From an uncultured virus (IMG/VR IMGVR_UViG_3300049442_000166) (Duplodnaviria > Heunggongvirae > Uroviricota > Caudoviricetes), in the IMG/VR virus record IMGVR_UViG_3300049442_000166: a DNA stretch of 64,000 bases; one strand, given 5' to 3'. The notes under the pieces were generated by a model. It was given only the letters and a program-made list of their open reading frames with translations, was not told the DNA's origin and searched no databases. Below are positions 14,661 to 58,399 of this stretch, piece after piece; positions within the stretch are counted from its first letter, which is position 1, and every line of letters starts with the position of its first letter. The position numbers and the translations under genes were made by a program.

Positions 14661-15137
14661 CTATGTCCTCCTGTTGAGCCGCTGCTCGGACCACGTCGCC
14701 CAGCGCCAATTGTCCGGCCCGTAGTCGCCGTAGGGATCGACCCGGTCGAGGGTCAGCCCAGGCGGGCGCTCGCCGACATCAGTGTGGAAATTTTCGAATG
14801 AGTGCCAGCGCTCACAAACGCGCACACCGAGAGCGCCATAGTAGCGGTAGTGCGGCTGGTTCGAGTTGTAGCAGCGGCTCATCATGCCGCTCCACGCCCC
14901 ATAGAGCGCCGTACTGGACATGCCATGCGTCCGGTTTCGAGCGCCGGAGGCCTCGTTCCTGCCGCACCCGCAAGACCGCGTTTTGCCAGCACGCAGATCC
15001 ACGCCAGCGACAACCGTCTCGTTCCCACACTCACAAACACAGCGCCAGAACGCACGATTGTGCGTCCCCACATGCGAAAACCCGGTCACCCGAATACGAC
15101 CCGCTGAGAACCCCAGCATGTTGACTAACACACCCAT
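14661..15137 (-). CDS. HNH homing endonuclease
   Basis: WRCVCECG, TRSCGC, LTLDRVDPYGDYGPDNWRWAT. Confidence 0.85.
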   Translation of the reverse strand: MGVLVNMLGFSAGRIRVTGFSHVGTHNRAFWRCVCECGNETVVAGVDLRAGKTRSCGCGRNEASGARNRTHGMSSTALYGAWSGMMSRCYNSNQPHYRYYGALGVRVCERWHSFENFHTDVGERPPGLTLDRVDPYGDYGPDNWRWATWSEQRLNRRT

Positions 15138-17080: not shown

Positions 17081-17422
17081 TCAGACGTGTTTCTCCGGTT
17101 CTGGTATCGCGTCGCCGAAGTACCATCGGAAGATGTCCGGCAGCTCCAGCGCTGCCAGCTCGCTGCACATCAGCGCTCGACCGCGGAACTCCTGCAGCAT
17201 CAGCTGCTCCATCTCGCCCGCCAGGAATGCGCGAAGGGCCTCACGCAGGAGGCTGTCCCGGTAATCCGCCAGCCATGCCAGCACCTGCACCGTTACCGGG
17301 TGGTGCCGCCATAGACTGAAGTCCCCCGGCGATAGATCCCGCAAGGCCGGGCGGCGCTGCTCCACCACCTCCTCCGCTGGAGCCACCACCTTCGCCAGCT
17401 GGTCCGGTGTCAGTGACAACAT
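17081..17422 (-). CDS. Hypothetical protein overlapping the portal 3' end
   Basis: 113 aa; F..WRHHPVT motif of small genes following portals. Confidence 0.45.
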   Translation of the reverse strand: MLSLTPDQLAKVVAPAEEVVEQRRPALRDLSPGDFSLWRHHPVTVQVLAWLADYRDSLLREALRAFLAGEMEQLMLQEFRGRALMCSELAALELPDIFRWYFGDAIPEPEKHV

Positions 17423-19817
17423 TGAGTAAATCGATCTGATGTCTGAGTGCGGTCAGCTGGTGCTCGTACCAGCCCTGGTCCACCTCGGCGTCGGCCTTGC
17501 GCGCGTTGGCGAGATTGAGGATGGCCTGCGACAGCTCCTTGATCTCCGAGGCTTTGTCCTTGCCGCGCTTGATCGCCAGCTCGACCTGCTCGTGCTGCTG
17601 GCGGATATCGAGTTCCTTGTTGCGCAGGCCTGCCATCTGGCCGGCGATGTCGACCTGCTCCTTCTGCAGCTGCAGGTTCGCCGCCGCCTGCACCAGCTCG
17701 GCATTGGGTGGCGCCTGGGCGGCGATCAGCTTGTCGACCTGCTGAATGGCTGCGGCCTGCAGCGCCCTCAGGCGGATCTCGCGCCCGTCGAAGAACGGGT
17801 CAGACGCGAACTGCAAGAGGAAATTAGCCTGCGCCATCTGCTGGGTGTCGGTGACCATGTCCGGATCGCTGACGGGTTCCGCGCCAGAACCCCGCAGATA
17901 GTCTGATCTCTGTATCTGAAAGTATTCTGATCCGATACGAAATCCTGCTTCGTCAGGAAGGTACAGCCGATTGAGCCTAAATAGCTTGTCGAAGTCCTGT
18001 CGTAAACTCCTGTGTATACGTTTGAATATGGCATTGAATACCTTCAGTCCCTGCTGGATAACCGCTAGGCCGAGGATGCCTGGGACGTTCGCACCGGGCA
18101 GCTGGCCCTGCAGAACTTCCCTGATGCTACCTACATCTTTGGCTGCTTCCACTAAGAACTGCAGCAGCTGGAACAGCACCGGGTTGGGGCCCGGCATCTC
18201 AAGCGGTACTAAGTTTTCCCGCAGCGTGCGGCCCTGCGTGGTGACCACCTTGTATTCGCCGGTCATGAACCGCACAGAACCGGCGTTGATCGACACGCCG
18301 CCACCGATGAAGCCACCGCCCGCGATCTGCAGGTGACCGGCGTCGAACATCTGGTTGATGGTGGTGTTGACCGCCGCGTTGAGCGGATACATCAGGCTGC
18401 CGAAGCCCAGGTCGTATGACCCGCCGTCGGGGTTCGGGATGAAGCCGTACTTGGTGAAGTAGTCGATCTGACGGATCTCAGAGACCTCGCCTTCTTCGGT
18501 GGCGTCGATGCAGTCCTGGTCGAAGCCCACCGTGATGCGGGCCAGTTTGCCGCTGTCCTTGGCGAACGTGACGATGACCGGTTCGTCGTAACCGTCGTCG
18601 TCGAGATCGTAGCGACGGTGCTGTTCGCAGAAGGTGACCGGCGCCTGCTCGTCCTCGGAGGTGTCGGCGTTGCGGCCATAGCCCTCGTCGCCGTAGTCGA
18701 GCCACAGGCCGGAGCGGATGTTGCTCTCGATCTCCCACGGGTAGAAGTCGATCAGCTCCGTCTTGCGCGGGGCGGCATCAAAGCTCTTGGCCTTGTAGTT
18801 CACGCACAGGCGCAGGGCCGAGACGATCTCGCTGACGTTCCGCCTTTGCTTCGGGTCGAAGTAGTTCTTCCTGAACATCGTGCCGGCGATCGCCACGGTG
18901 ATCAGCAGCCGATCGGTCTGCTCCTCCCACTCCGGCATCTCGGTGAGCAGCTGCCAGGACATATGCCGGCCGATGCGGTCAGCGCGGGTCTGTTTGGACC
19001 CTGGCGGCACGATCCACAGTGCCTTGCCACCGGGACCGATCGCCTGCCCGCCTGGGCCTTGTTGTGGACCCTGTCCGCCCTGGCCGGGTTGTGGTGGCAT
19101 TGGGGGTGCCCCTGGCGGTGCCCCTGGAGGGGGTCCGGCCATGCCGCCAGGGGCTGCGCCCCCAGGTGGCCCGAGTGAGGGTGGGCCGCCGGGTCCGGGT
19201 TGTCCGGGTGGTCCGCCCGGCATCATGCCGGGCTGCGGTGGGGGTGCCATCAGCGGCACGCCGCGGTCGTCGCCGACCACCTTGCCTTTGACGACGTTGC
19301 TGCCCTGCACGATCGCCGGATACGCCCTGGCGTTGAACTGCAGCGCGGCGACGGTGATCAGTGGGAAGCAGACGTTGGAGGCGTTCGGCCAGGGATAGGT
19401 CTTCGGCTCGACGACCTGCAGCGCGAAGGCCATCCACTCGCCGTACCTCTGTTTCCAATCCGCCCGCGTCTCCTCATCGAGTTCGTATTCCCGCTTCGCT
19501 TGGTCGGCGAGGCGTTGGCGCTCGCCGTCCTCGATCTCGTCGGCAATATTCTTGCGCACGATCCACCTAGCGAACCGTCGCACATGCTGAGGTTGCAACA
19601 GCGGCCGGCGGTCGGCTTGGTCGGTCTTGGGGTCGGCGAGGGACTGGTCGGGCGCTGGTGGGCGGAGCGGCAGGATGTCAGCGGATTTTAGCGGCGCCTC
19701 AGGCTCATCCGGCGGCGGCCCCTGCATAGTCTGGCCATCGTCAGGCGGCGGCGGTTGCTGCGCGTCCTGATCTGGCGGTAGTGGTCCCGTCGGAATGGCG
19801 CTGAGCGCGGCACTCAT
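17241..19817 (-). CDS. Portal protein
   Basis: KTYPWPNASNV..PLI..AA.QF.ARAY, GTMFRKNYFD; follows terL; C-terminal coiled coil. Confidence 0.85.
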   Translation of the reverse strand: MSAALSAIPTGPLPPDQDAQQPPPPDDGQTMQGPPPDEPEAPLKSADILPLRPPAPDQSLADPKTDQADRRPLLQPQHVRRFARWIVRKNIADEIEDGERQRLADQAKREYELDEETRADWKQRYGEWMAFALQVVEPKTYPWPNASNVCFPLITVAALQFNARAYPAIVQGSNVVKGKVVGDDRGVPLMAPPPQPGMMPGGPPGQPGPGGPPSLGPPGGAAPGGMAGPPPGAPPGAPPMPPQPGQGGQGPQQGPGGQAIGPGGKALWIVPPGSKQTRADRIGRHMSWQLLTEMPEWEEQTDRLLITVAIAGTMFRKNYFDPKQRRNVSEIVSALRLCVNYKAKSFDAAPRKTELIDFYPWEIESNIRSGLWLDYGDEGYGRNADTSEDEQAPVTFCEQHRRYDLDDDGYDEPVIVTFAKDSGKLARITVGFDQDCIDATEEGEVSEIRQIDYFTKYGFIPNPDGGSYDLGFGSLMYPLNAAVNTTINQMFDAGHLQIAGGGFIGGGVSINAGSVRFMTGEYKVVTTQGRTLRENLVPLEMPGPNPVLFQLLQFLVEAAKDVGSIREVLQGQLPGANVPGILGLAVIQQGLKVFNAIFKRIHRSLRQDFDKLFRLNRLYLPDEAGFRIGSEYFQIQRSDYLRGSGAEPVSDPDMVTDTQQMAQANFLLQFASDPFFDGREIRLRALQAAAIQQVDKLIAAQAPPNAELVQAAANLQLQKEQVDIAGQMAGLRNKELDIRQQHEQVELAIKRGKDKASEIKELSQAILNLANARKADAEVDQGWYEHQLTALRHQIDLLNVVTDTGPAGEGGGSSGGGGGAAPPGLAGSIAGGLQSMAAPPGNGAGAGMAGGLPGQPPA

Positions 19818-19850: not shown

Positions 19851-20105
19851 TCAACCGGTGGTCGTTCCCCGTTCGGTCCAGCTCCCGCACCAATAATCGG
19901 CGCGCACCACCGGGAAGGTGGAGAAGGGGCGCAGTTCCATGGATGTTCCCAGCTTCGATGGCATGGGGATGAGGAAGGCGGTCGGGGGATTGCGTCGGCA
20001 GTTGAGGTCGCCCGCGGGATCTTTCCAGCTGTAGCGGCAGGTCGCGCAAGCTTGGTCCAGCATGCGAGCGACCACGTCGCGGGGAACGATTAAGGTGGAA
20101 GACAT
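19851..20105 (-). CDS. Small Cys-rich hypothetical protein
   Basis: CATCRY...CRRNPP...FPVV..DYWCG. Confidence 0.6.
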   Translation of the reverse strand: MSSTLIVPRDVVARMLDQACATCRYSWKDPAGDLNCRRNPPTAFLIPMPSKLGTSMELRPFSTFPVVRADYWCGSWTERGTTTG

Positions 20106-20158
20106 GGAGGGCAGTCTATACCGGAGGTAGCATCCGGCATCTACCTAGACCGCCCTCC
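20106..20158 (-). ncRNA. Structured element 1 (outer stem plus a-b-a'-b' core)
   Basis: ggagggcagtcta/tagaccgccctcc; taccgga/tccggca; ggtag/ctacc. Confidence 0.7.
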
Positions 20159-20615
20159 CGCTCTACGACGTCGGCACACTCGCCCGCATCGGCTACGCTC
20201 TGAAGGCTCGGCACTCTCTCGCTACCCGGCTCGCTCGGCTATCATGGCACGCTCGCGGTTGATCGGCTCGCTCACGGGCTTCGGCACTCTCTCGCTGATC
20301 GGCTCGCTCTCTCTATGCGGCACTCTCGCGGATAGCGGCTCGCTCCTGGGGCTCGGCACTCTCGCTCGTAGCGGCTCCGCTCCTGCTCTACGGCACTCTC
20401 CTGAACTTCGGCTCGCTCGCTGGGTTCGGCACTCTCGCAGGTTTCGGCTCGCTCAACGGGTTCGGCACACTCCGAGACCTAGGCTCGCTCCCGGCAATCG
20501 GCACTCTCTGACCATTCGGCTCAGCGGGGATGCGGCACCGACGTCAGCAATCGGTGGCTGACCCGCACCCCCACCCGCTCCAGTTCGAAGGCACTCTCCC
20601 GCAGCTCGGCTGCTC
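20159..20615 (-). repeat. TIGR-like dual-repeat guide array 1 (11 units, including embedded element 2 at 20522-20575)
   Basis: Plus strand alternates CGGCACTCTC and CGGCTCGCTC with variable 8-nt spacers, 36-nt period. Confidence 0.9.
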
Positions 20616-22128
20616 AATAACCAGTGGTCTTTGAGCGGGTACGATCCTGCACCAGCCTGGAATTAAGTTCAATCATGTCGTTATCGATCTGGTCACCGCG
20701 CCATTGCATCGAGGGGCCGAACAAGCGGGTGGCGGTGTACTGGAGCGCGTCGGCCGGGTGTGAATGCAGGTTCTTCTCGGGCTTGTCAGCCCAGCGCTCG
20801 GTGCCGGCGATCTGGATCCGCCGGTAGTGATACCCACCCTGCAGCGCCCGCCGCAGCCGGCCGCACCTGGGATGGAGGTTGAACGCCGGCCGTCCATCAT
20901 CATCAAACTGGCGGAGCTGCTTGCGGATGCACTCCTGGCGGATCTGCGGGGACTGCAGGCCGGGCTCGATCATGATGCCCTTGGTGTGTAGGATATCGAA
21001 ACAAGTCCGCTCATCAGTCTCGGCGCGGCTGTTGCCAGCCGGGTCACCGACGTCGATGAACTCGGTGTCGGGGAAATGCTGGCTGGAGTGGCTCAGCACC
21101 TGATCGCTGAAGCGGTCGACGCCCATCGTATCGGCGCACAGCTCGTCGACGATCTTCCATTGGCCCGTCGCGGCCAGCTGGCTGAAGATGCAGCTGGGCG
21201 TCAGGCCGAAGTCCCACCCGCGGTGCACCGGCAAGCGCGGGTCGGTGCGGGGTGCACGCTTCTCGTCGGCGCCGCCAGGGCAGTGGACGTTGTCATGATA
21301 TTCAGGGAAGACCGGGCGACCCTCGGTGACGAAGCCATATTCACCGCGACAATATACTTTCACCCATTCATCAGTTTTTCCGATGGCCAGCCGCTGCCAG
21401 TAGCCGGGCGACTGGTTCTTGGCGTTCTCCGCGCTGGCCGACAGGCCGGATGGCTGCTTGAATATCCGACAGTATTTTGCAACGGTCATGCCGGGCATGA
21501 ACGCGGCGAGACCTTCGACCGCCTCGGTGTGGTCCATCTTCTCGAAGAACCGGTACCATGCGCTATCGGCATCGGGCGGGTTGGTGTCGAGGATGATGCC
21601 GGCCCAGGTAGCACCACCGCCGTCTCGCTTGGCCGGGTAGCGATCGACGCGGCCCTGCAGGGCGTCGATGATCGTCCAGGGTACCTCGCGCGCCTCGTTC
21701 ACCCAGGCGCCTGTGAGGTCGAGTGACAGCAGGTTCCGAACGTGGTCTGGCCGGTCGAGCGCGCGGAAGAGCAACTCGATTTCGGCACACTTCTTATCGC
21801 CGTCAGCAATGAGTTTGTTCAGCACATACTCGTGCTCGGTCGCCCGCCATTGCCCCATCATAGGGTACGGAAACCATTGGTGCACCGTTCTGATTGTCGT
21901 GTCGTTGAGCTGGCGATAGGTGTTCCTGATCACCGCCCAACGGCTGCGCCGGATGCCATCGAGGCCGGGCTTCTGCTTCAGGCCACGCTGGACGATGTCC
22001 CATAGGCAGCCGCTGCTCTTGCCGCTGCCGAACGGCCCCATCAACCCCCTGATGAACGCGTCATCATTGAGGAAGGCGTGGATCGTCGGGACATCGCCGG
22101 TGTTGTAATCGAGCGTGTGTTTGACCAT
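20614..22128 (-). CDS. terL: Terminase large subunit
   Basis: Walker A GPFGSGKS, Walker B AWVNE, DTNPP, RGWDFG, HPADALQY. Confidence 0.95.
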   Translation of the reverse strand: MVKHTLDYNTGDVPTIHAFLNDDAFIRGLMGPFGSGKSSGCLWDIVQRGLKQKPGLDGIRRSRWAVIRNTYRQLNDTTIRTVHQWFPYPMMGQWRATEHEYVLNKLIADGDKKCAEIELLFRALDRPDHVRNLLSLDLTGAWVNEAREVPWTIIDALQGRVDRYPAKRDGGGATWAGIILDTNPPDADSAWYRFFEKMDHTEAVEGLAAFMPGMTVAKYCRIFKQPSGLSASAENAKNQSPGYWQRLAIGKTDEWVKVYCRGEYGFVTEGRPVFPEYHDNVHCPGGADEKRAPRTDPRLPVHRGWDFGLTPSCIFSQLAATGQWKIVDELCADTMGVDRFSDQVLSHSSQHFPDTEFIDVGDPAGNSRAETDERTCFDILHTKGIMIEPGLQSPQIRQECIRKQLRQFDDDGRPAFNLHPRCGRLRRALQGGYHYRRIQIAGTERWADKPEKNLHSHPADALQYTATRLFGPSMQWRGDQIDNDMIELNSRLVQDRTRSKTTGY

Positions 22129-22133
22129 GGAAT

Positions 22134-22196
22134 GGGAGGAAAGCGCATCGGCGACCTGACTGACAAGGTCACCGGTCAGTCATGCGCTCTCCTCCC
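22134..22196 (-). ncRNA. Structured element 3
   Basis: gggaggaaagcgcat/atgcgctctcctccc; cggcgacct/aggtcaccg; gactgac/gtcagtc. Confidence 0.75.
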
Positions 22197-22772
22197 CGCT
22201 CCCGTACCCCGGCACTCTCGAACCACTCGGCTCGCTCAGCGTGTACGGCACTCTCGTGGCGCCCGGCTCGCTCGCCTAATCCGGCACTCTCACTTGTCCA
22301 GGCTCGCTCTCTACACACGGCACACTCATCTACACCGGCTCACTCGTCGCTCTTGGCACTCTCAGCTGGCCCGGCTCGCTCACTACTGGCGGCACTCTCT
22401 CGGATAGCGGCTCGCTCACTTGGTTCGGCACTCTCCATCGTAGCGGCTCGCTCCTGTTCTACGGCACTCTCAGCTGCGACGGCTCGCTCCTGATGTTCGG
22501 CACTCTCTCGCAGCACGGCTCGCTCTACCTTATCGGCGCTCTCCATTATCACGGCTCGCTCCAAGGGCGCGGCACTCTCACCAACGCCGGCTCGCTCCTG
22601 TGGCTCGGCACTCTCTTCATGGTCGGCTCGCTCTTCCTGCTCGGCACCCTCGTGCCATTCGGCTCGCTCGCGCTTCTCGGCACTCTCAGGGATACCGGCT
22701 CGCTCCTACGCCACGGCATACTCAACGTAGTCGGCTCGCTCGGCTATCACGGCACACTCCTAGCCCGCGGCT
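22197..22772 (-). repeat. TIGR-like array 2 (16 units)
   Basis: Exactly 16 x 36 nt; same dual repeats, variable spacers. Confidence 0.92.
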
Positions 22773-23004
22773 AGTCGGTGACCTTGTTCGCATCTTGGAG
22801 CGGCCCGGGCAACTCGGCTTCATGCTCCTGCGTCCACCGCTTCGGCGGCTTCCCGCCGTGGTTTAGATAAATATAACGCTCCCTGGTCACCGGAATGCCT
22901 TGCTTCAGCATATAGTCCAGGGTGATGTCGTTGTGGCGATGGGCCTCCAGCTCCGCCGGGCTCACCACCCCCTCCTCACCCTCACTCCTCGGCGTCGTCG
23001 CCAT
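22771..23004 (-). CDS. Hypothetical protein
   Basis: 77 aa; its TAG stop overlaps the first repeat of array 2. Confidence 0.5.
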   Translation of the reverse strand: MATTPRSEGEEGVVSPAELEAHRHNDITLDYMLKQGIPVTRERYIYLNHGGKPPKRWTQEHEAELPGPLQDANKVTD

Positions 23005-25030
23005 AGTCCTGTCCTCCAGCCCAACTGGGTGGTTTTAGCCCACCCGCATGAGACACGATAGCCTCTCGTCTCTCATCAGGGGTTTTACCACGATGCGCCC
23101 CCTTGTTGCGCCACATATCTGCAACTTCACCGACGAATGTCTTGTTGCGCTTCTGTTCCGGTGAGAACAGGCCGCGCACGCCCTCCCAGGTCACGCTCTG
23201 CAGCTCCCGGGGCATGATGCCGAGATCGGCAGCCGCCCGCCGGTAGGCCTCGGCATACAGCCCATACATCCCCTTGTTGCCCAGCGTGGCGCTGTCCCCG
23301 GCCTGGGGCAGCCGCGGCGCGTTGGGATCCCCCTTCGGCTGCTTCGGGTTGGTGCCCAGGCCGTGGGCGACCTCCATGGCGCCGGCCCCGAGCGGCCGGA
23401 GCAGCGCCGCGGCAATCGCGTGGGTGTCGATCGTGACATCGTGGCCATGCCCTGGCGCGATGATGTTGTTGTAAAAGTTACGCACCTTGTGGGCGCCGCC
23501 CATCAGCCGGGACACGGTCGGCAGGTCGGCGTTCTGCAGCGCCGCCATCGCTTTGCCGATCTCGCTGAAGCTGCCCCAGGTCACGTCCCGTGACCGCGAC
23601 GCCTCCTCAAGCTGACCCTTGCGCTTGCCTTTGGTGTAGTACTTCGCCGGGATCATCGAGGTGCCGGCCTCGCCGCCCTCCGGGGTAATGATCTTGTAGC
23701 TGCGCGGGTTGTGCGCCTCGTCGTGCCAGCGGGCGAACACGGCGCGCTCGAAGGGGTCGGTGAGCGCTGACATCGGCGTCTCGCGGAACTTCTGCTGCAG
23801 CCCCCTCAGCCTCTCGATCATCTCCGGCTCGCCCTTCCAGGGCTTCCCCGTCGCCTGTGCCTTGGCCTGCTGCTTCGCCGCCTCCGTCTCCAGCTGGGTG
23901 ATGTACTTCGCAGAGTAGTCCTGCATCTTGTCCGTCATCGTCCAGTTGGCACCGAGCTTGTGTGCCTCGAACGCCTTCTTGGCGAGATGGACGTTCTGAT
24001 ACCAATCCTTCTGCGGGCTGAGTGCGGCCAGCACAGCGGCGGCGACGTGCGGCTGGACGCCGTATTCCTTGGCCAGACTGTGGGCGATGCGGTTGGCGCC
24101 GCTGTACCACTGCTTGGCGCGCTCGACGATGCCGGGGCCGATCGGGCCCTTCTCGTCGTTCATCTTGTTGTACAACCACTTGAGGTTGTCCTTGGCGTGG
24201 TTGATGAACGCCTCGTTGATCTTGGTCGGGTCATCGGTGCGCAAGTGCTCGAACCCCGGGTAATGCTCCTTGATGATCTTGGCGTTCTTGGCCTTCTGGT
24301 CGGTCGCCCGGTTCATGCTGTCGTAGTCGCTCGACAGGTCGGCGGTGCCGTGCGCGTCGATGCCGGCTGCACGCTGCGCCGGCTCGGACGGGATGCGGGT
24401 GGAGATGCGCAGATCGCTGCGGCTGCGCTCCGGCTCCTGATCGGGCGATGTCGGCGCCTCGGGTTCGGCTCCTGGCGCAGGTGCAGCACCCTGAGCACCG
24501 CCGGCCTGGGCCAGCGCCTCGCTGCCGTAGGTGGGGCCGCCCATCGTCTGGCCCGCCAGTCGCTGCGCCACCGCACCACGTTGGCGGACCAGCCCGCCGC
24601 TGGTGGGATCCTGCTGGAACTGGGTGACGTCAGCCGGACCACCTGGGGGCGCGCCAGGAGGCGCCATGGGCGCTGCGGCTGGCACCGGCACCGACATAGC
24701 GGCGGCACTGGGCCCCGGCGCCGCGGCACGCAGCTGGGCAACCCCTGAGGACGGCGCTATGCCCATCGGCGGGGGCGACGGCGGCATCTCCATAGCCGGT
24801 GGCGTCATTACACCGGGCGTCGGCGATGGCTGCGCCAGCTGCGCCAGCGACAGCGCGGCACGCGGCGGCTGGATCGGCGCCAACCCTGGCGCGCGCGGCG
24901 TCTGCCACAGCTGGTCTGTGAGCTTCGCCAGCGGGTCAAGCTGCTTCTGATATTTCGCCAACGGATTGGTTTCGAGATCCCCACCGGGATCGATCTGTGG
25001 GTAGGGGATACCCCCGAGGCGACCGCTCAT
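22982..25030 (-). CDS. Protein with Pro-rich N-terminus and a putative HhH-GPD/glycosylase-like DNA-acting domain
   Basis: WY..A...AAVLAALSPQ..W..N, KVRNFYNNI, VTIDTHA, Y..AY..AA...G..P.ELQ..TW. Confidence 0.5.
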   Translation of the reverse strand: MSGRLGGIPYPQIDPGGDLETNPLAKYQKQLDPLAKLTDQLWQTPRAPGLAPIQPPRAALSLAQLAQPSPTPGVMTPPAMEMPPSPPPMGIAPSSGVAQLRAAAPGPSAAAMSVPVPAAAPMAPPGAPPGGPADVTQFQQDPTSGGLVRQRGAVAQRLAGQTMGGPTYGSEALAQAGGAQGAAPAPGAEPEAPTSPDQEPERSRSDLRISTRIPSEPAQRAAGIDAHGTADLSSDYDSMNRATDQKAKNAKIIKEHYPGFEHLRTDDPTKINEAFINHAKDNLKWLYNKMNDEKGPIGPGIVERAKQWYSGANRIAHSLAKEYGVQPHVAAAVLAALSPQKDWYQNVHLAKKAFEAHKLGANWTMTDKMQDYSAKYITQLETEAAKQQAKAQATGKPWKGEPEMIERLRGLQQKFRETPMSALTDPFERAVFARWHDEAHNPRSYKIITPEGGEAGTSMIPAKYYTKGKRKGQLEEASRSRDVTWGSFSEIGKAMAALQNADLPTVSRLMGGAHKVRNFYNNIIAPGHGHDVTIDTHAIAAALLRPLGAGAMEVAHGLGTNPKQPKGDPNAPRLPQAGDSATLGNKGMYGLYAEAYRRAAADLGIMPRELQSVTWEGVRGLFSPEQKRNKTFVGEVADMWRNKGAHRGKTPDERREAIVSHAGGLKPPSWAGGQDYGDDAEE

Positions 25031-26802
25031 GGCGTGCCTTTCTTGTGGTCGCGCAGTGCGTCAGCACCGGCATCGATCATCGCCGGCATACCGTTACGCT
25101 TGACGATGTTGATCGTGCGCGGATCGAACACGACGTAGTTGTGGCTGCCATGGCCGGAGGCTCGACTGCCAGCATCGAGGTAGCGGATGCCCGGGATACC
25201 GGCGTCGAGTAGCCGCCGCGCCGCCGCTTCATCACCCCCTCTACCACCAGCCATGTGCGTGTAAATGTGTTTGCCCTGATCCGTGTCGCCATAGCCGTGA
25301 TCGAGCAGCCTGTCCCGCACATACGAATGATGCTGACCAAGCGGCTTATCCCAGTCGAGCATGTGGTCCGGATGAATGTGCAGCTCCGACTGATACAGTT
25401 GGCCGGTGCTTTGGGCGAAGTCATCCGGCTTCAGTTTACCTGCTGCCGCGTGCACACCGAGATAGAACTGGCCACGCCGCTGGTCCGCCTCCCACGCGTC
25501 CGTTCTCCCGAACCCATGCCGATGCGGCGAATATGACATCTGCGCCGCCGCGTCAGCGTACTCATCCTCCACCTTCTCGATCGCCTGCCGTGCCGTCATC
25601 CCCTGGTCCTGCATGAATTCGGCGACCTGATGCACCGCCATCTTGTGCGGATCGACCCCGCTCCACACCGGCACCGCACCCTGGTGGGTCACACCACCAG
25701 ACAGGTCATCGCGGTAGCTCTTCGCGATGCTTTCATTGCCAGCCTGATAAATGCCCTTGCCGTAGGCCTGGGCGCCCTCGCCCGTGCCGAGCTTGCTGAG
25801 GTTGAACTCACCGAGTGGGTTGGCGCGCGTCGGCGCGAACTCGTGTGGCGTGCCGTGGTGCACCGTCAGCGGTTGCGCCATGCGGATCAGCTGGCCTGAG
25901 CCATACGCCTCTGGCCCGGGTGCGGCGGGCACGTTTCCGCGGCTCTCGACGTGCGCCAGGGCGGCGTGCTGCGCCGCGGTGCCCGCGTCATAGTCAGCGA
26001 CATGGGGGCCGTCAGTAGGCTGATACGAGCCCGCCTGGGGGTCGTGTGCCATGAACACGACATCGGGCGTGCCACCCTTGAATTCCCTGAACGTGTCACG
26101 CATCCAGCCCTTCGGCTTGTGCTCCTCGCTCCAGGGGATGCGCGCGACGGCACGGAAGCCGTTCTGTGCGTAAATATGTGGCAGCACCGTATCGAACGCA
26201 TCAAGCCGCCGACCGCCGTTCTGTTTGGCAAGGTCGAGCATCGATCTGGTGACGTTACGGTATGGCGCCTTCGGATGTTTGAACACCGATACGATGTCAT
26301 CGCCCTTCAGCGCGAAGCCGGCATCACCCTCCTTGGTCGCGAACATCCGCATCCCGCGGTAGTCCTCGGGAGGATATTGGGTGACCGCGGCGCCGGCCGG
26401 GTGAGCCTTCTTGGCGACACCGATTACATGGTGAAAGGCATCGGCACCCTCTGGGTGCAGCTCATGATACGTCGGAGCGTCGGCGTTGGAGTAGCCCTGC
26501 TTCGGCGACCAGACGGTCTTGGTGACGCCAGAGAGACCTGTGCCTAGACCCAGTGCCGAAGATGCTTCAGGGCTTCTGCCTTCGTAATTCCCCTCGACTG
26601 CACCAGCTCGTCCGCCAGCCTGTCCAACAGCTTGTCCGCCTCCCGCTGGATCTCCGGGGTTGAGCGGTAACTGTGCTGGGGCTGGTGTTGCGACTGGTCC
26701 TGGGGTGGTTGTTTGGCCATATCGATCTCCGAGCGATCCTAGCGCATTGGTGCTAGGCGTCGCCAGCGGCGGGTAGGGGATGCTGCCAAGCGTCGCGGAC
26801 AT
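25027..26802 (-). CDS. Polyvalent-type protein: GNAT-like plus ADP-ribosyltransferase-like domains
   Basis: DIVSVF...GGRRLDAFDT.LP.IY...GF; VHHGT...GTGEGAQAYG.GIY...GIPGIRY...NYVVFDP; start re-called at MSATLG. Confidence 0.6.
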   Translation of the reverse strand: MSATLGSIPYPPLATPSTNALGSLGDRYGQTTTPGPVATPAPAQLPLNPGDPAGGGQAVGQAGGRAGAVEGNYEGRSPEASSALGLGTGLSGVTKTVWSPKQGYSNADAPTYHELHPEGADAFHHVIGVAKKAHPAGAAVTQYPPEDYRGMRMFATKEGDAGFALKGDDIVSVFKHPKAPYRNVTRSMLDLAKQNGGRRLDAFDTVLPHIYAQNGFRAVARIPWSEEHKPKGWMRDTFREFKGGTPDVVFMAHDPQAGSYQPTDGPHVADYDAGTAAQHAALAHVESRGNVPAAPGPEAYGSGQLIRMAQPLTVHHGTPHEFAPTRANPLGEFNLSKLGTGEGAQAYGKGIYQAGNESIAKSYRDDLSGGVTHQGAVPVWSGVDPHKMAVHQVAEFMQDQGMTARQAIEKVEDEYADAAAQMSYSPHRHGFGRTDAWEADQRRGQFYLGVHAAAGKLKPDDFAQSTGQLYQSELHIHPDHMLDWDKPLGQHHSYVRDRLLDHGYGDTDQGKHIYTHMAGGRGGDEAAARRLLDAGIPGIRYLDAGSRASGHGSHNYVVFDPRTINIVKRNGMPAMIDAGADALRDHKKGTP

Positions 26803-26805
26803 GAT

Positions 26806-26858
26806 GGTGGGAAGCATACACCACGACGGGCTCGTGGCGACCCGTTATGCTCCCCACC
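26806..26858 (-). ncRNA. Structured element 4
   Basis: ggtgggaagcata/tatgctccccacc; caccacga/tcgtggcg; cgggc/acccg. Confidence 0.7.
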
Positions 26859-27254
26859 CGCTCGGCCACGTCGGTACTCTCAATCGAGACGGCTCGCTCG
26901 ACTGTATCGGCACTCTCGCATCGGTCGGCTCGCTCACTTTGGTCGGCACTCTCTGCTGCTCAGGCTCGCTCAGCCTTGTCGGCACACTCTTCGAATACGG
27001 CTCGCTCGTTCAGATCGGCACTCTCGCACATCACGGCTCGCTCTCTCGTATCGGCACTCTCGTATACGACGGCTCGCTCAGGTGTAACGGCACTCTCAAC
27101 ATCCCAGGCTCGCTCCCTCATCACGGCTCTCTCAGTGAAGACGGCTCGCTCGTTCTTTACGGCACCCTCAGATCGAGCGGCTCGCTCCGCTATGTCGGCA
27201 CTCTCTCACAGCACGGCTCGCTCTGGACCGACGGCACACTCACGATAGACGGCC
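26859..27254 (-). repeat. TIGR-like array 3 (11 units), downstream of the tas gene
   Basis: 11 x 36 nt dual-repeat units. Confidence 0.92.
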
Positions 27255-27321
27255 CACCTGCGGGCGTGCGTGGTGTTTGCCTCGTTTAAGACCCAGGCCC
27301 ATTAGCTCCGGTCCCCGCAGG

Positions 27322-28512
27322 TCACCGCGGCTTCCGCGGCCGCGATGTCGGACCACGTTGCGCCTTGGCCTTCGCCGCGGCAAACGCAGGTATCAGCTCG
27401 ATGTTGGGGATCTCCAGCCGGTGCACATGTCCTGGGATATTCTCGATGACGTACGGATGCGGCGGCAACTCTTTGTAATGATCCCAATACATCACCTCGT
27501 GGAGATGCGCGAGGAAAAGCTTCACTGCGCGACGTTGCGCTCGCAGATGCAGACGGGCCGGCGGCAACATGCCTTGCTGATACCACTTATACGCGTCGGT
27601 CTTCGGATCAAACCGCTTCAGCTCCAGGCTGAGCTTCGCCTGATCGGCGTAGAGCTGACGGCTGTTGCGCTCGGTCTCCCAGTCCTTCCGCGCCTTGTAC
27701 AGCTTGCCGTAGACGTCGTCCGGCCTGTTAGATACTTTGACAAAGCTCTCGCCGATCAGAAAGCACAGCCGCTTCAGGCTGGCGTTCCACGGGCGCTTCT
27801 GGCCCTTGCCCCAGATCGAGGTCGGATCCAGCCCGGCGAAGCGCCAGATATGCCCCACGGTCGGTGCGCGTTGGATGTCGATGTTGGCCAGCAGCCCGGC
27901 GGCGATCACCGGTCCGATGCCCTTGATGCTGCGCGCCCAGATGCCGGCCTCATCGGACAGGCTGTAGATGTCGAGTGTGCCGCGGATCTGCTTTTCGAGG
28001 GTCTCCTCCTGCACGAACAACCACTCCAGAACCTCGTGTGGCTCGGGGACTGGATCTGCCACTGGCTGCGGCTGCGCCTCCTCATCGTCCTCGTCGCCCT
28101 CGTGAGCGTCGTCGGTGCGCTGCTGCTTCGGCTCCGCTAAAGTCCTCACTTGGTGTTTGGTGCGGATGCGGTTCTCCTGCATAGAATAATACGCATCGAC
28201 GAGGAACCGCGCCTCGATCTTGCCGAGGGTGCGCGACGCCTGCTTCAGATCCTTGGTTAACTTCTGGATCGGTGTCAGCAGGCTGGGATCGGCGGTAGAT
28301 GTCAGCAGCTGGTGCAAGGCATCGAGCCGCTGGAACAGGCTGGCGATCAGGTCACCGTCCGGCGGTTGGTTGCGGCCATGGCGCAGCAGGCTGAGCGCGT
28401 CACCCACAAGCTCGACGGGTGTCATCGCCAGGAAGTCTTCGGGGCCCATCGGCTCGGTCGTGATCGGCGGTGGCATGTCCTTGGCTGGGCGGTATGTTTC
28501 TGGCCGTTTCAT
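27322..28512 (-). CDS. Tas-like Nop/IS110-related RNA-binding protein with no nuclease domain (TasA-like)
   Basis: Coiled coil (YY.MQENRIR), SIKGIGPVIAAGLL, IWRFAGLDP, RPWNASLKRLC, YGKLY..RK, LHLRAQRRAVKLFL; no DEDD RuvC or HNH motif; flanked by arrays; AAGGAG RBS before MKRPETY. Confidence 0.85.
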   Translation of the reverse strand: MKRPETYRPAKDMPPPITTEPMGPEDFLAMTPVELVGDALSLLRHGRNQPPDGDLIASLFQRLDALHQLLTSTADPSLLTPIQKLTKDLKQASRTLGKIEARFLVDAYYSMQENRIRTKHQVRTLAEPKQQRTDDAHEGDEDDEEAQPQPVADPVPEPHEVLEWLFVQEETLEKQIRGTLDIYSLSDEAGIWARSIKGIGPVIAAGLLANIDIQRAPTVGHIWRFAGLDPTSIWGKGQKRPWNASLKRLCFLIGESFVKVSNRPDDVYGKLYKARKDWETERNSRQLYADQAKLSLELKRFDPKTDAYKWYQQGMLPPARLHLRAQRRAVKLFLAHLHEVMYWDHYKELPPHPYVIENIPGHVHRLEIPNIELIPAFAAAKAKAQRGPTSRPRKPR

Positions 28513-28534
28513 GGGTTCTCCTTTGGGGTGGTTC

Positions 28535-28786
28535 CACTCAATGGTTGCGGCACTCTCGGGGAACACGGTTCACTCTGCAGTTGCGGCACTCTCGTTGCTC
28601 ACGGTTCGCTCAATACCCTCGGCACACTCTCCTCATCCGGCTCGCTCTAGCTTCTCGGTACTCTCAAGGACTGCGGCTCGCTCCTATCTATCGGCACGCT
28701 CCATGGAAACGGCTCGCTCATGTCACACGGCACTCTCTTTCCAAGCGGCTCGCTCACCAAGCCCGGCACTCTCCGAAGCTACGGCT
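28535..28786 (-). repeat. TIGR-like array 4 (7 units), directly upstream of the tas gene
   Basis: 7 x 36 nt; repeats degenerate toward the gene. Confidence 0.9.
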
Positions 28787-28888
28787 TGGTCTTTGCTACC
28801 GCGGCCGGCGCAGCAAAGTCAAGATGGTTAATCAGGAGACGGTACTGGCCGGTAGAAGGATGCAATGAAGGCAGGAAAGGAAGGCAGG

Positions 28889-29038
28889 TCAGCGGTGCAG
28901 CACGGCCTGGAAGATCACCCAGGCCATTGCCAGGGAGCCGGCGCTGGCCAGGACGTAGGCGTAGGCCCGGTCGTAGCGCCGCCGTGGTCTGGGTGCTTGG
29001 TTGTAGCGGACGGTAGAGCGGCGACGGCGCAGCCGCAT
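28889..29038 (-). CDS. Small basic membrane peptide (49 aa, not in the ORF track)
   Basis: MRLRRRRSTVRY...AYVLASAGSLAMAWVIFQAVLHR*; starts 5 nt after element 5. Confidence 0.4.
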   Translation of the reverse strand: MRLRRRRSTVRYNQAPRPRRRYDRAYAYVLASAGSLAMAWVIFQAVLHR

Positions 29039-29043
29039 CAGCT

Positions 29044-29098
29044 CAGCGGGGATATGGTACCGGCGTTAGCAAACCGGCAGCTGACCCATACCCCCGCC
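29044..29098 (-). ncRNA. Structured element 5
   Basis: ggggatatgg/ccatacccc; taccgg/ccggca; gttagc/gctgac. Confidence 0.7.
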
Positions 29099-29602
29099 CG
29101 CTCTTGAGTGTCGGCACTCTCTCTTGACGCGGCTCGCTCGGCATCCGTGGCACTCTCACACATGGCGGCTCGCTCAGCTCTCCCGGCACTCTCGGTTGGT
29201 GTGGCTCGCTCATTGGCTACGGCACTCTCGCCCACGCGGCTCGCTCGTCGATGTCGGCACTCTCGCGGTTTATGGCTCGCTCGGCCAGCTCGGCACACTC
29301 TCGGACTTCGGCTCGCTCAGCCGGTTCGGCACTCTCCAGGGACACGGCTCGCTCTCAAGGATCGGCACTCTCGCTGGATGCGGCTGCGCTCTTATCTATC
29401 GGCACCCTCATTTCATTGCGGCTGCGCTCATGTTGCTCGGCACCCTCGCAACTGGCGGCTCGCTCTGTCTGCTTGGCACTCTCATAGATCTCGGCTCGCT
29501 CGCGCCAGTCGGCACACTCAACCTTCCCGGCTCGCTCACCTTCCTGGCACTCTCGTGGAGGCGGCTCGCTCATCCATTTCGGCACTCTCGGACGGCCCGG
29601 CT
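29099..29602 (-). repeat. TIGR-like array 5 (14 units)
   Basis: Dual repeats; a few 7- or 9-nt spacers and CGGCTGCGCTC repeat variants. Confidence 0.9.
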
Positions 29603-29735
29603 AACGCGCCGATGCTATCGCCGTCCCACCGGGTGCGCCATGCCGCTGCCATCATGGAACGCCGTGCCACCACAGTTGTGGCCGGCGAGCTGGTTCCTGG
29701 CGGCCTTCTTGATCGCCCGCAACAGGCTGCCGGGC

Positions 29736-29984
29736 TTAGACTGGCGCGCTGCCGGCTGGCGGGCTTGCTGGCCCCGCTGGCCCTGGCCCACCGCCGCCGA
29801 GCCCGGCGAGTAGCTGCCCGAGCCCACCGCCATTGCCTTGGGCACCATCCCCTGATTGATCACCGCCATTGGGTGGCTCCTCCATCGGCATCTGTTGCCG
29901 CCGCTTCTTGTGCTTGCGGTGCGCGTGCGGCCCCTCGGTGAACGCGGTCGGTGCGTCGGGGAAGGCTGTCGGGTCGTCGCTCAT
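29736..29984 (-). CDS. Gly/Pro-rich hypothetical protein
   Basis: GAGGAG RBS before MSDDPTAF. Confidence 0.4.
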   Translation of the reverse strand: MSDDPTAFPDAPTAFTEGPHAHRKHKKRRQQMPMEEPPNGGDQSGDGAQGNGGGLGQLLAGLGGGGPGPAGPASPPAGSAPV

Positions 29985-29994
29985 GTCTCGCTCC

Positions 29995-30420
29995 TCACGC
30001 CTCGCGCTGCGGCTCGTGCTCCCCCTCGGCCTGTGGCTCCTGCCACGCCGTCGGCACCTCCAGCGGATCTGGGCTGATCTCAGCCTCTGCCAGCGCCCGC
30101 TCGTCGGCGCTTGGCTCCTCAGCGACAACCGGTGCGCCCTCGACCATGGTCAGCCTGGGCACCGTCTCGGCGTCCTCCTGGAGCAGCCCATAGTCGGAGA
30201 TCAGACACGAGGTGATGCGGCTGTCGAGCGCGCCACCATCGTGCGCCAGGAGCAGTCGCGTCTTCACCTGCTCGGCGAGGTTGGGCGCATCGGGATCCCC
30301 AGCCAGTGAGATCGTGGCACCGAAGTAGCCGCCGTCGAGCATGAGCATCTGCACCAACGGGACCGGGACGATGTCTTGCGGCTCTAGCTCTTCGAGGCTG
30401 TCGGTGTAGGTGTCTGACAT
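29995..30420 (-). CDS. Acidic hypothetical protein, paralogous to the N-terminus of 10862-11815
   Basis: G.Y..ATI and L.SR..S.L.S..GL.Q..A shared. Confidence 0.55.
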   Translation of the reverse strand: MSDTYTDSLEELEPQDIVPVPLVQMLMLDGGYFGATISLAGDPDAPNLAEQVKTRLLLAHDGGALDSRITSCLISDYGLLQEDAETVPRLTMVEGAPVVAEEPSADERALAEAEISPDPLEVPTAWQEPQAEGEHEPQREA

Positions 30421-30584
30421 GGTTCTTCCCCCTCATCGTCCGGTGGCGGCCAGTCGATCTCGCCCTTGCCCTTACATAGCCAGCAATCCTCACGTTGGAG
30501 GCAGGCTGAACTGACGAGGCGCACTATGACATACTGCCGGCCATTGCAATTAGGGCAGATGCAGCGGAAGAAGCCGACGGTCAT
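30384..30584 (-). CDS. Small zinc-finger protein (DnaJ-type CxxCxG)
   Basis: CPNCNG...CWLCKGKG. Confidence 0.5.
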   Translation of the reverse strand: MTVGFFRCICPNCNGRQYVIVRLVSSACLQREDCWLCKGKGEIDWPPPDDEGEEPCQTPTPTASKS

Positions 30585-30881
30585 CGCCGGCTCTTGGCGC
30601 CTATGTTCGCCGGCTGGCGATCAGGCTGCACGCCCTCCTGGGTGGCGGCGTAGTTTGGGGCGTAGCCGGCCTGGAACGCCGGGTGGTCAGCACTGCTGCC
30701 CTTGATCTTGGGCTCGCTATTCTTCACCTCGATCAGGGCTGCCCAGGCCTCGTGCGGCAGATGCTCCGGCCATCCCGCCTGTTGGGCGTCCCACAGCGTG
30801 TGGGTGTCCGTTTCGATGTGAGGATAACCTAGCGCGTACTTCGGGGCGGGGGTGGCGGAGAGCAGCGCCTCGCTCCCCGCC

Positions 30882-31334
30882 CGCTCCGCGATCCCGGTAC
30901 TCTCTGGCTCTGCGGCTCGCTTCGGTGTCTCGGCACTCTCAAGTCTGTCGGCTCGCTCACTGTGCCCGGCACTCTCATGTGTAGCGGCCCGCTCAGTCGC
31001 CTCGGCACTCTCTGGCTCGTTGGCTCGCTCAGCGGTATCGGCACTCTCACAAGTTTCGGCTCGCTCGGACAGCTCGGCACTCTCTCGATCCACGGCTCGC
31101 TCATCTGTATCGGTACGCTCGCGAGTGTCGGCTCGCTCAGGTTTCTCGGCACTCTCTTCTGCCACGGCTGCGCTCATCTGTGTCGGCACCCTCACTGCGC
31201 TCGGCTCGCTCGGTTATCACGGCACTCTCTCTCGAAGCGGCTACAACGGGGACGATGCACTGGCGTCAGCAAACCAGTGGCTGACCATCGTCCCCGCCCG
31301 CTCGGCGGCCCCGGCACTCTTGCACATCACGGCC
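30882..31334 (-). repeat. TIGR-like array 6 (11 units; element 7 embedded at 31243-31298, short element 6 at 30843-30881)
   Basis: Dual repeats with 36-nt period; element 7 has perfect ggggacgatg/catcgtcccc, cactgg/ccagtg, gtcagc/gctgac. Confidence 0.9.
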
Positions 31335-31439
31335 GTATTCATTGTCCTACAGGATCAACCAGAAGAACAGTCCCCATAGCGGTAGCGACAGCGTGACGCC
31401 GACCGCAATCCCCTTGGCCACAGCCAGGTGATCATCCCC

Positions 31440-31628
31440 TCACCGAGTTCCTGCTCGTTTGATCCACCGGTCACACCACCCTCCCGGTTTGATATCTCCT
31501 GCAACTAGGTGGCACGCATTAGGCGCGCGCCAATGGACGCACTTGTCACACGTCTCAGACTGTAGCTCCGCCTTTGGCGTGTAGCGCGTGTCGCGTTTCG
31601 TCAGCTGCCTGATCGGCCGCTGCGCCAC
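31440..31628 (-). CDS. HiPIP-like small Fe-S protein
   Basis: CDKCVHW...CHLVAGDIKPGGWCDRW four-Cys pattern. Confidence 0.6.
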   Translation of the reverse strand: MAQRPIRQLTKRDTRYTPKAELQSETCDKCVHWRAPNACHLVAGDIKPGGWCDRWIKRAGTR

Positions 31629-43383: not shown

Positions 43384-43398
43384 TCCTTGAATGACGAC

Positions 43399-57853: not shown

Positions 57854-58399
57854 ATGCCGAAGCCTTTCCGTAGTCTACCGCCCCTGATCTTTCTACGCGA
57901 TAGCCTCATATACGAGCCAGAACTCGGCGCGTACAGATGGCAACGGTGGCGCCCACGAGAACACTTCCCAACCCAGAAGGGCTGGAAGACTTTCAATAGG
58001 CTGTTCGGTGGAACGCCAGCCGGGGGTATCGTCCTCGGATATTGGATGATCCACATCAGCGGCAAGAATTACAGGGCGGCGCGGATCGCCTGGATGTTGA
58101 TGACCGGCGAAGATCCTGGCGCCATCGAGATTGATCACATCAACAAAAACAGTGCTGACGACCGCTGGGAAAATCTTCGGTTAGCTACGAGCGCGCAGAA
58201 CTTGCGTAACCGAGGCGTCAACAAGAACAACGGTTCTGGATTGAAGGGCGCCTATCGCCATCGCAAGCAATGGCACTCACAAATCACAGCAGAGGGCGTC
58301 GTTCATTACCTGGGTTCCTTCCCCACCCCTGAGGCCGCCCACGCCGCCTACGTCGAGGCCGCCCGCCGGCTGCACGGCGACTTCGCGCGGGAGGGCTGA
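57854..58399 (+). CDS. HNH-AP2 homing endonuclease
   Basis: IDHIN...DDRWENLR; YLGSF.T.EAAHAAY. Confidence 0.9.
   Translation: MPKPFRSLPPLIFLRDSLIYEPELGAYRWQRWRPREHFPTQKGWKTFNRLFGGTPAGGIVLGYWMIHISGKNYRAARIAWMLMTGEDPGAIEIDHINKNSADDRWENLRLATSAQNLRNRGVNKNNGSGLKGAYRHRKQWHSQITAEGVVHYLGSFPTPEAAHAAYVEAARRLHGDFAREG

Follow-up and report, generated by a model that had tools for sequence, protein, structure and literature searches.

In the clade of a soil phage whose TIGR arrays are interspersed among essential late genes, a dedicated covarying RNA module stands at every array end but one. The window (the whole stretch of DNA analysed, 64,000 nt) holds six full elements of 53-63 nt and one short form, E6, a plain 11-bp hairpin without inner helices. 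As argued from the geometry of its segments, the element is a two-state hairpin and not a pseudoknot. We read it tentatively, at somewhat less than even confidence, as a clade-specific boundary module that would seal the RNA ends diced by Tas and replace the ribosome-binding leader. TIGR-Tas systems first became known in 2025, and the expression and delimitation of their arrays, and the way in which dense phage genomes tolerate them, are questions for the field; some 70 guide units within a packaging and structural operon, together with such an end module, offer a testable answer to how the operon survives despite self-dicing.

Arrays and elements in the late operon

The dual-repeat units are grouped on the minus strand into six array blocks, with tas, the terminase, the portal and other late genes as neighbours (Table 1). 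In this operon context, a scan of 16-35 kb returned no promoter-like site, and the arrays directly adjoin the stop codons upstream of them. Co-transcription of tas and an array cannot be told from sequence alone (Xu et al. 2026, 10.64898/2026.09.09.750476). The Tas protein carries an invariant Y...H pair near its C-terminus, and a dyad of this type is what published dual-repeat Tas proteins use to cleave the edge repeat. A PHROGs scan of 45 window ORFs labels tas a 'transposase', its sole match in the integration-and-excision category.

Table 1. Elements, TIGR arrays and tas in the window
Feature	Position	Strand	Remarks
E1, full	20106..20158	-	directly abuts ATG 20105-20103 of the 84-aa gene upstream of portal
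TIGR array between E2 and E1	20159..20521	-	edge GAGCGAGCCG, loop GAGAGTGCCG, 8-nt spacers
E2, full	20523..20575	-	after a single tigRNA unit just past the terminase stop codon; then G + AGCCG + main array
Single tigRNA unit (one-unit mini-array)	20576..20611	-	between terminase stop codon and E2
E3, full, longest helices	22134..22196	-	5 nt before terminase ATG at 22128
TIGR array	22197..22759	-	ends at E3
E4, full	26806..26858	-	3 nt before ATG 26802 of the 591-aa gene
TIGR array	26859..27241	-	ends at E4
tas	27322..28512	-	nuclease-less Nop-domain protein, 396 aa
TIGR array before tas	28535..28791	-	without element; then unstructured leader with AAGGAG
E5, full	29045..29098	-	one C-A mismatch in a:a'; 6 nt before ATG 29038 of a 49-aa ORF
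TIGR array	29099..29589	-	ends at E5
E6, short form	30854..30881	-	outer clamp alone: 11 bp, 6-nt loop
TIGR array between E7 and E6	30882..31242	-	
E7, full, all Watson-Crick	31246..31298	-	after a single unit; then TGT + AGCCG + main array
Single tigRNA unit	31299..31334	-	before E7

All seven copies listed in the initial annotation exist, at coordinates within 1-3 nt of those given there except for the short copy, which spans 30854-30881 and not 30843-30881; related phages have a full element at its position. As that annotation also claimed, each of the seven starts at the first base after minus-strand GAGCG, itself preceded by a loop repeat and 8 nt. This half edge repeat precedes the element in 22 of 25 aligned copies, and the first base after it is paired in all 21 of these 25 with sequence at that pair. 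The five bases that follow GAGCG retain part of the edge half, reading GGCCG, one mismatch from the full edge repeat, in the terminase-type copies. Downstream, AGCCG and more array follow two elements (E2 and E7) and a gene follows five. The earlier division into two array-splitting and five array-capping copies holds in its counts, but the 'split' ones are one-unit mini-arrays with a terminal element of their own. Six of seven non-terminal copies stand after exactly one unit past a stop codon and 1-7 nt before AGCCG, and one relative has an element directly after a stop codon, at the array's 5' side, where the window has none. The elements were found in one phage clade only, in which the presence of array and element modules varies between the same genes, and phages with 98% identical terminases carry elements of unrelated sequence in front of this gene.

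Two alternative inner helices on the tas-sense strand

The full element comprises a G-rich/C-rich outer clamp of 11-15 bp and two inner helices, a:a' and b:b', of 6-9 bp each. Covariation of the three helices, claimed initially for the window copies, is confirmed on 25 element copies from related phages, with compensatory changes in both inner helices. When a:a' was left out of the alignment model (clamp and b:b' retained), it was 96.0% paired and 5/6 of its pairs change on both sides; when b:b' was left out instead (clamp and a:a' retained), the values were 97.0% and 8/8. Slid registers of b:b' gave 34-51%, and none of 500 shuffles reached the observed values. The segment order a-b-a'-b' and this covariation of crossing helices (96% and 97% paired) are shared with H-type pseudoknots. 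However, the a-b and a'-b' linkers, which would be the groove-crossing loops, both have a length of 0 nt in all true copies that the descriptor retrieved, and thus the two stems cannot coexist. The mutual exclusivity that had been suspected is thereby upheld, and the proposed pseudoknot is untenable.

The conformer energies differ by +2.0 +/- 2.3 kcal/mol (n=21), and a nearest-neighbour model, with register caveats, gives a:a' a median equilibrium probability of only 0.02. The module is a compact natural two-state RNA in which selection keeps both states. Among the aligned copies, unpaired positions amount to 1-3 nt of variable sequence, no unpaired nucleotide is conserved, and no conserved box motif lies next to a or b'. 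For the 'switch' first suggested, a ligand or ribozyme type is unlikely because no unpaired base is conserved.

The folded strand is that of the tas-sense transcript, the window minus strand, since G-U or U-G pairs occupy 41 of 379 cells in the aligned copies and A-C or C-A a single one; the minus-strand RNA structure claimed earlier is backed by these counts. At one position, G-U is the commonest pair (13/23 copies). The minus-strand RNA of the full elements folds with minimum free energies of -31.8 to -42.3 kcal/mol (-20.4 for the short copy; z-scores -3.3 to -7.8), and the plus-strand fold is weaker in 7/7 elements. A strict descriptor (8/8 outer pairs and a perfect a-b-a'-b' order) retrieves 5/7 elements and two weak chance matches on the minus strand, 1/7 elements on the plus strand, and 23 weak scattered matches in ~2.2 Mb of unrelated strand sequence. 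It misses E5 through its one C-A mismatch and the short copy through the absence of inner helices.

A proposed boundary between arrays and Shine-Dalgarno-less genes

The 3' end of the clamp lies 0-9 nt ahead of a start codon or 1-7 nt ahead of the next array. A Shine-Dalgarno core at -20..-4 is found in 0/16 element-led genes as against 18/35 other ORFs. In two array-less relatives, which share the same sequence, the terminase has AAGGA and overlaps the upstream stop codon. The initial annotation had missed both the abutment of elements and start codons and the lack of a Shine-Dalgarno motif.

According to the tentative boundary-module reading, the element would be co-transcribed with the late-operon genes on the window minus strand, and Tas, by its own metal-independent RNase, is expected, by analogy with mapped systems, to cut right after GAGCG. 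The downstream RNA would then begin with a blunt, fully paired, G:C-rich clamp lengthened by one inner helix. Ahead of a gene, this hairpin would form the entire 5' leader, its 3' strand adjoining the start codon; ahead of an array, or at an array's 5' side, it would stand just before the next cut and supply the upstream RNA with its 3' end. It may thus shield mRNA and precursor ends made by array dicing from end-dependent RNases, fix the last cut, and set, probably limiting it, the translation of the gene behind. Since a:a' is the only inner helix able to form during RNA synthesis and b:b' is slightly more stable, the two are read as a sequential-folding pair, in which a:a' would guard the G-rich 5' strand against wrong pairing with array RNA while the 3' strand is yet to be made, b:b' being the final partner. 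It counts against this reading that the equilibrium probability of a:a' is so low that its proposed role depends on the order of folding. The initial idea of a 5' cap or processing boundary fits this predicted anatomy, in which the first base after GAGCG is paired. If RNA-end protection or Shine-Dalgarno-less starts hold true, the module could be an insulator part for multiplexed tigRNA expression.

Several observations speak against the boundary module. The clamp is not required behind every array, because tas, which has an ordinary leader in the window, follows a clamp-less array in 5/5 clade phages, and in one relative (L081) the orthologue of the 591-aa gene also lies behind an array without the element. 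The short copy indicates that the outer clamp alone can fill a site, and end-sealing therefore does not account for the retention of the inner helices. A helix of -30 kcal/mol touching the start codon should moreover impede ribosome binding. Lastly, minimal arrays require full edge repeats for processing (PMC12045711), so that cutting at the truncated edge is not assured. An unlikely variant makes the element a translation gate, by which the Tas cut would couple late-gene expression to guide-RNA processing: cutting would yield a blunt hairpin whose new 5' end is base-paired beside position -1 of the start codon, initiation would proceed in a pseudo-leaderless, Shine-Dalgarno-free manner, and clamp opening would depend on the toggle between a:a' and b:b'. 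Such a gate, if true, would represent a novel type of initiation region, and for the first time a guide-RNA array would be linked at the RNA level to the control of neighbouring genes.

Among the other explanations, cleavage within the element by a host double-strand RNase of the RNase III type, parting array RNA from a short-leader or leaderless mRNA, is rather unlikely too. In either conformer, clamp and inner helix add up to ~20 bp, one strand of which carries a bulge of 6-8 nt; RNase III sites containing an asymmetric internal loop are known from phage intergenic regions, and the closeness of the clamp to a Shine-Dalgarno-less start codon would suit a processed short leader. However, such a site does not explain why the elements start precisely at the predicted Tas cut point, the short copy has just 11 bp, and no RNase is matched among the 45 scanned window ORFs. 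It is improbable that the element is a Tas pseudo-unit. This would be a degenerated final guide unit in which a complementary 3' strand hides box and spacer, and it would present the last scissile bond or block Tas assembly on an incomplete unit. The remnant of the edge half after GAGCG and the full edge repeats needed by published minimal arrays agree with it, but similarity to the 36-nt unit reaches 7.2/20 fixed positions against 5.85 expected from composition, box motifs flanking a or b' are absent, and the abutment of start codons is not explained. A role in terminating or attenuating transcription, in keeping with the first annotation of TIGR array ends, is equally doubtful in spite of a G+C-rich hairpin at the annotated place: a terminator scan of 16-35 kb called 19 other sites and 0/7 elements, none of which has the T-run of a rho-independent terminator (0/7), and essential genes begin directly behind. 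Given the lack of a promoter-like site in 16-35 kb and the stop codons adjoining the arrays upstream, the late genes would fall silent if termination were efficient; with the terminase and late-gene starts 0-9 nt behind, the elements do not appear to end a transcription unit.

A role at the DNA level, in which a folded single-stranded hairpin marks array cassettes for insertion, loss or exchange in the manner of integron attC sites, is very unlikely. It would suit the coming and going of modules between the same genes, the unrelated elements ahead of near-identical terminases and the favoured strand; attC sites likewise favour one strand. Against it, 0/45 window ORFs match a recombinase in PHROGs (tas 'transposase' aside, in a window that may not be the entire genome), the position where G-U is commonest is typical of RNA, and the constant placement relative to start codons and the RNA cut point is left unexplained. 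Finally, a self-cleaving ribozyme of the HDV-like or hatchet type that cuts its own 5' end and frees the last guide RNA is extremely improbable, even if the element begins precisely where an RNA end is required and its helices cross one another along the sequence. The elements match no Rfam family, no unpaired nucleotide is conserved, and the linkers, of 0-3 nt, vary in sequence. The first strand of the element pairs with its last, unlike in HDV-like folds.

Comparison with known RNA elements

An Rfam search of the elements returned no match at the gathering threshold or at E<=1, in line with the initial remark that this is not a described motif. TIGR arrays have been reported to end in a truncated edge repeat and a predicted terminator (Faure et al. 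2025, PMC12045711), a description that went unnoticed in the initial annotation; the published account of array ends mentions only a "predicted terminator". The elements share with those ends the site directly after the 3' truncated edge repeat, the strand and a G+C-rich hairpin. They differ in lacking a T-run, in having a start codon or the next array within 0-9 nt, in their two covarying, mutually exclusive inner helices, and in their single-clade occurrence at every operon-embedded array, one-unit arrays included, and once at the 5' side.

Stem-loop tigRNAs (Faure et al. 2025; Xu et al. 2026, 10.64898/2026.09.09.750476) also have a variable closing stem kept by covariation at TIGR loci. In contrast, box C/D motifs and free spacers are absent here, the stem bridges the end of one unit and the start of the next and not both ends of one unit, and the Y...H loop kept in this Tas is absent from the Tas of those clades. 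Without a conserved motif adjoining a or b', the elements do not group with stem-loop tigRNAs.

Stabilising stem-loops exist at the 5' terminus of bacterial mRNAs, the ompA leader hairpin being an example. Like these, the element is a stable hairpin whose presumed 5' end is free of unpaired bases, but this end would come from a guide-RNA processing enzyme and not from a transcription start, the ribosome-binding leader would be replaced, and the stabilising effect is putative. The early and late mRNAs of phage T7 carry intergenic RNase III processing hairpins, which are similar in being ~55 nt long with an interrupted stem and in capping the neighbouring mRNAs once cut; the cut point predicted here lies at the base of the hairpin, set by the TIGR edge repeat, and not inside.

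Arrays and elements among the late phage genes

The phage genes between ~100 and 34300, among them that of the major head protein, lie on the minus strand of the window. In the same orientation, a 36-nt unit, in which the 10-mers GAGCGAGCCG and GAGAGTGCCG alternate with 8-nt spacers between them, is repeated in six blocks spanning 20.1-31.3 kb (~70 loop repeats). This architecture is the dual-repeat TIGR layout described by Faure et al. 2025 (PMC12045711). Instead of forming one array beside tas, the tigRNA units are scattered among essential late genes, with the portal, terminase, 591-aa, 682-aa and tas genes interspersed between the blocks. The 396-aa protein, which matches Pfam Transposase_20 and the PDB chains 9mty_A and TasH, is the Tas protein. 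Near its C-terminus, a PPxPY...GHxH stretch, invariant in six relatives, is similar to the Y/H dyad used by dual-repeat Tas proteins for metal-independent cleavage of the edge repeat (Xu et al. 2026 preprint; PMC13421893). Alignment of Tas proteins (A5) also displays a ~75-aa N-terminal extension and an acidic insert in the window clade, and the Tas proteins of two related loci (L060:4063-5439 and L081:9905-11260) carry a further ~70-aa insertion after the GIGP helix.

Arrays are oriented in the tas sense at almost every one of 80 related Tas loci. Several soil and rhizosphere DNA runs contain the phage; contigs from four such runs were fragmented, with repeat-driven joints, and had no bearing on the element. 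The nearest record, G001, is devoid of arrays, and a protein search with the 591-aa gene product returned a near-identical contig as sole match. Scanning of 16-35 kb identified no promoter-like sites. Two HNH endonuclease genes are present, one of them within the structural gene block.

Coordinates of the features discussed, on the window
Feature	Position	Strand	Remark
HNH endonuclease gene	14661-15137	minus	
Portal gene	17241-19817	minus	
Portal gene start	19808-19817	minus	ATGAGTGCCG, two mismatches to the loop repeat
tigRNA units	20159-31334	minus	~70 units
Terminase large subunit gene	20614-22128	minus	
Element before terminase	22134-22196	minus	
Array stretch matching sR14	27076-27128	minus	18.9 bits, E=0.2
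tas	27322-28512	minus	396 aa; Pfam and PDB matches
Array end before tas	28512-28547	minus	degenerate edge (GAGTG), AAGGAG leader
Site without element	29590-29615	minus	9 nt only
YALGYPHIE gene	30581-31195	minus	GTG at 31195
Short hairpin	30854-30881	minus	clamp only, 6-nt loop
Double spacer match	43371-43390	plus	unit near 29385
HNH endonuclease gene	57854-58399	plus	

Anatomy, strand and covariation of the element

The seven sites proposed in the initial annotation are all real, each being preceded by a loop repeat, 8 nt and GAGCG, and descriptor and model searches found no additional copies elsewhere in the window. A stem enclosing the strand order a-b-a'-b' had been assigned to the copies, one of them marked as short. 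Six are indeed full elements of 53-63 nt, while the seventh is a short hairpin, its place being taken by a full element in two related phages. In the full element, the outer helix, or clamp, has 11-15 bp formed by a G-rich 5' strand and its C-rich 3' counterpart, and immediately encloses, in this order, segments a (6 nt) and b (7-9 nt), a linker of 1-3 nt, a' and b'. Copies thought to split a repeat within an array are indeed followed by AGCCG 1-7 nt on, but they prove to close mini-arrays of one unit. For 6/7 non-terminal copies, the arrangement runs from an upstream stop codon through a single unit, the element and a gap of 1-7 nt to AGCCG and the main array.

Folding of the minus strand yields z-scores of -3.3 to -7.8, better than those of the plus strand at 7/7 sites. 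Counted on the tas-sense strand, G-U/U-G pairs occupy 41 cells vs a single one for A-C/C-A, and at one position G-U is the commonest pair (13/23 copies). The constraint therefore acts on the transcript-sense strand, as expected from the minus-strand RNA postulated beforehand. Covariation had been claimed for three helices, and both-sided changes are found in the clamp, a:a' and b:b' in two alignments of 25 element copies, A4 and A6, each inner helix being tested on the alignment whose covariance model omitted it. Copies being related and partly paralogous, the shuffle counts, including the 0/500 shuffles that reach the observed value in A6, should not be read as probabilities. Part of the lower pairing figure of the clamp stems from the terminase-type copies, whose register is shifted by one column.

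Pairing and both-sided change in the two alignments (slid controls: A4, 33-48%; A6, 34-51%)
Alignment	Part	Paired	Pairs with both-sided change
A4 (model R1, clamp + b:b')	overall	90.0% (shuffled 66.5%)	
A4	clamp	84.0%	12/13
A4	a:a' (unmodelled)	96.0%	5/6
A4	b:b'	96.6%	7/7
A6 (model R2, clamp + a:a')	overall	91.0% (shuffled 66.7%)	
A6	clamp	85.3%	12/13
A6	a:a'	96.4%	5/6
A6	b:b' (unmodelled)	97.0%	8/8

A pseudoknot or switch had also been put forward. Since no true copy has a linker at the a-b and a'-b' junctions, geometry implies that a:a' and b:b' cannot coexist; the knot is thus dismissed, while the mutual exclusion of the inner helices, with their 0-nt junctions, holds. In constrained folds, clamp + a:a' and clamp + b:b' are +2.0 +/- 2.3 kcal/mol apart (range -1.2 to 7.8, n=21). 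The equilibrium model, in which some rows are off register, gives b:b' a median probability of 0.86 vs 0.02 for a:a', the latter exceeding 0.1 in 8/23 copies. As long as transcription has yet to reach b' and the 3' strand of the clamp, a:a' is the only inner helix that can form.

Distribution and published array ends

The element is restricted to a single clade of phages. Searches by pattern, protein and model found copies in phages with 64-100% identical Tas. None was found in more distant viral loci (Tas ~45-58% identical), which comprised 21 loci, the array-less relative L229 and the viral sources in a further search of 80 other than L072, L228 and L234, or in 17 bacterial genome loci. A generic array-end detector proved too noisy on distant Tas loci and was replaced by the descriptor and covariance models. 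Distant array ends that were read run straight into an ordinary leader (e.g., L027-L031, L033) or, as in L094, into a simple hairpin with a T-rich stretch behind it. A metagenome pattern scan returned 4 arrays among at least 120 loci, with no new element among the matches listed. Both R1 and R2 searches missed the window's terminase copy and L025:1954-2009; with search filters off, the former scores 17.9 bits, a consequence of its longer helices.

Gain and loss affect the element as a self-contained module. In the related phage L025 (745-830), a 53-nt element directly follows the stop codon of the upstream ORF and precedes the array's first AGCCG, at a site where the window has none. The terminases of the window and of phage L024 are 98% identical, and the elements before them (L024:17275-17335) share no stem sequence; as five other phages have a common conserved clamp with compensating inner changes, the window copy looks replaced.

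An RNase III site, a masked pseudo-unit, a terminator, a DNA-level cassette site and a ribozyme were considered as rival readings. The terminator has a precedent in print, a "predicted rho-independent terminator" after a truncated edge repeat being mentioned in PMC12045711, which uses "terminator" 3 times and "pseudoknot" 0 times. The element differs from this array-terminal hairpin: it lacks the form of a terminator, is two-state, is fused to start codons and occurs in a single phage clade. In a scan of 16-35 kb, none of the elements was called terminator-like. Descent from a fossil guide unit is unsupported, with 7.2/20 fixed positions matched vs 5.85 expected. A gathering scan of the whole window with Rfam gave 0 matches, in agreement with the initial remark that the motif was not recognised as a described one. 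At E<=1, the sole match in 19900-31500 is a C/D-box sRNA lying inside an array. This weak match, to the archaeal family sR14 and below the gathering score, is chance-level, yet agrees with tigRNAs being box C/D-like. The sections consulted of Xu et al. 2026 and of other 2026 TIGR papers, and the abstract and outline of Guan et al., do not mention the element; no description was found in the literature searched, supplementary figures aside, which may show array ends. No other published statement on array ends was found there, and the element is therefore classed with the TIGR array-terminal hairpins, as a new form.

Leaders of the following genes and proposed function

The end of the clamp is separated by 0-9 nt from the start codon of the next gene, start codons being fixed by N-terminal conservation across phages. 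The element is the entire leader of this gene and must therefore shape its translation. A Shine-Dalgarno core at -20..-4 is found in 0/16 element-led leaders vs 18/35 other ORFs of the window. Two relatives, identical in sequence in this part, lack an array before terminase; their terminase gene carries AAGGA and shares bases with the stop codon preceding it. No element accompanies the array before tas, whose degenerate edge gives way to a plain leader bearing a Shine-Dalgarno-like motif, in 5/5 clade phages, the window and four related ones.

Judging from sequence, the element's anatomy is consistent with a boundary module serving arrays embedded in an operon. The expected Tas cut would leave the downstream RNA with a blunt, fully paired 5' end, and at the other side of the array the upstream RNA would end in the hairpin plus at most 7 nt of 3' tail. 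Blunt paired 5' ends and short-tailed 3' hairpins are classical protections from end-dependent RNases. End-sealing does not account for the need for two helices, for which our best guess is ordered co-transcriptional folding. Ribosomes would have to start beside a -30 kcal/mol helix, for which the anatomy offers no explanation.

Spacers aimed at the phage itself or at the elements were also considered and rejected: a single exact double match was found (43371/43383), about the chance expectation and of wrong geometry. Both spacers of one unit match there, spaced by 12 nt and on one strand, whereas the published Tas geometry is two-strand. Behind the short hairpin lies a small gene with the conserved ...YALGYPHIE... 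stretch. It has no ATG/GTG/TTG after the array, and its reading frame extends upstream, uninterrupted across the entire array, as far as a GTG; in relatives its start codons differ or are unclear, one relative having an ATG inside the 3' strand of the clamp. Lastly, the portal gene has no Shine-Dalgarno motif upstream, and its start, close in sequence to the loop repeat, may be an array remnant.
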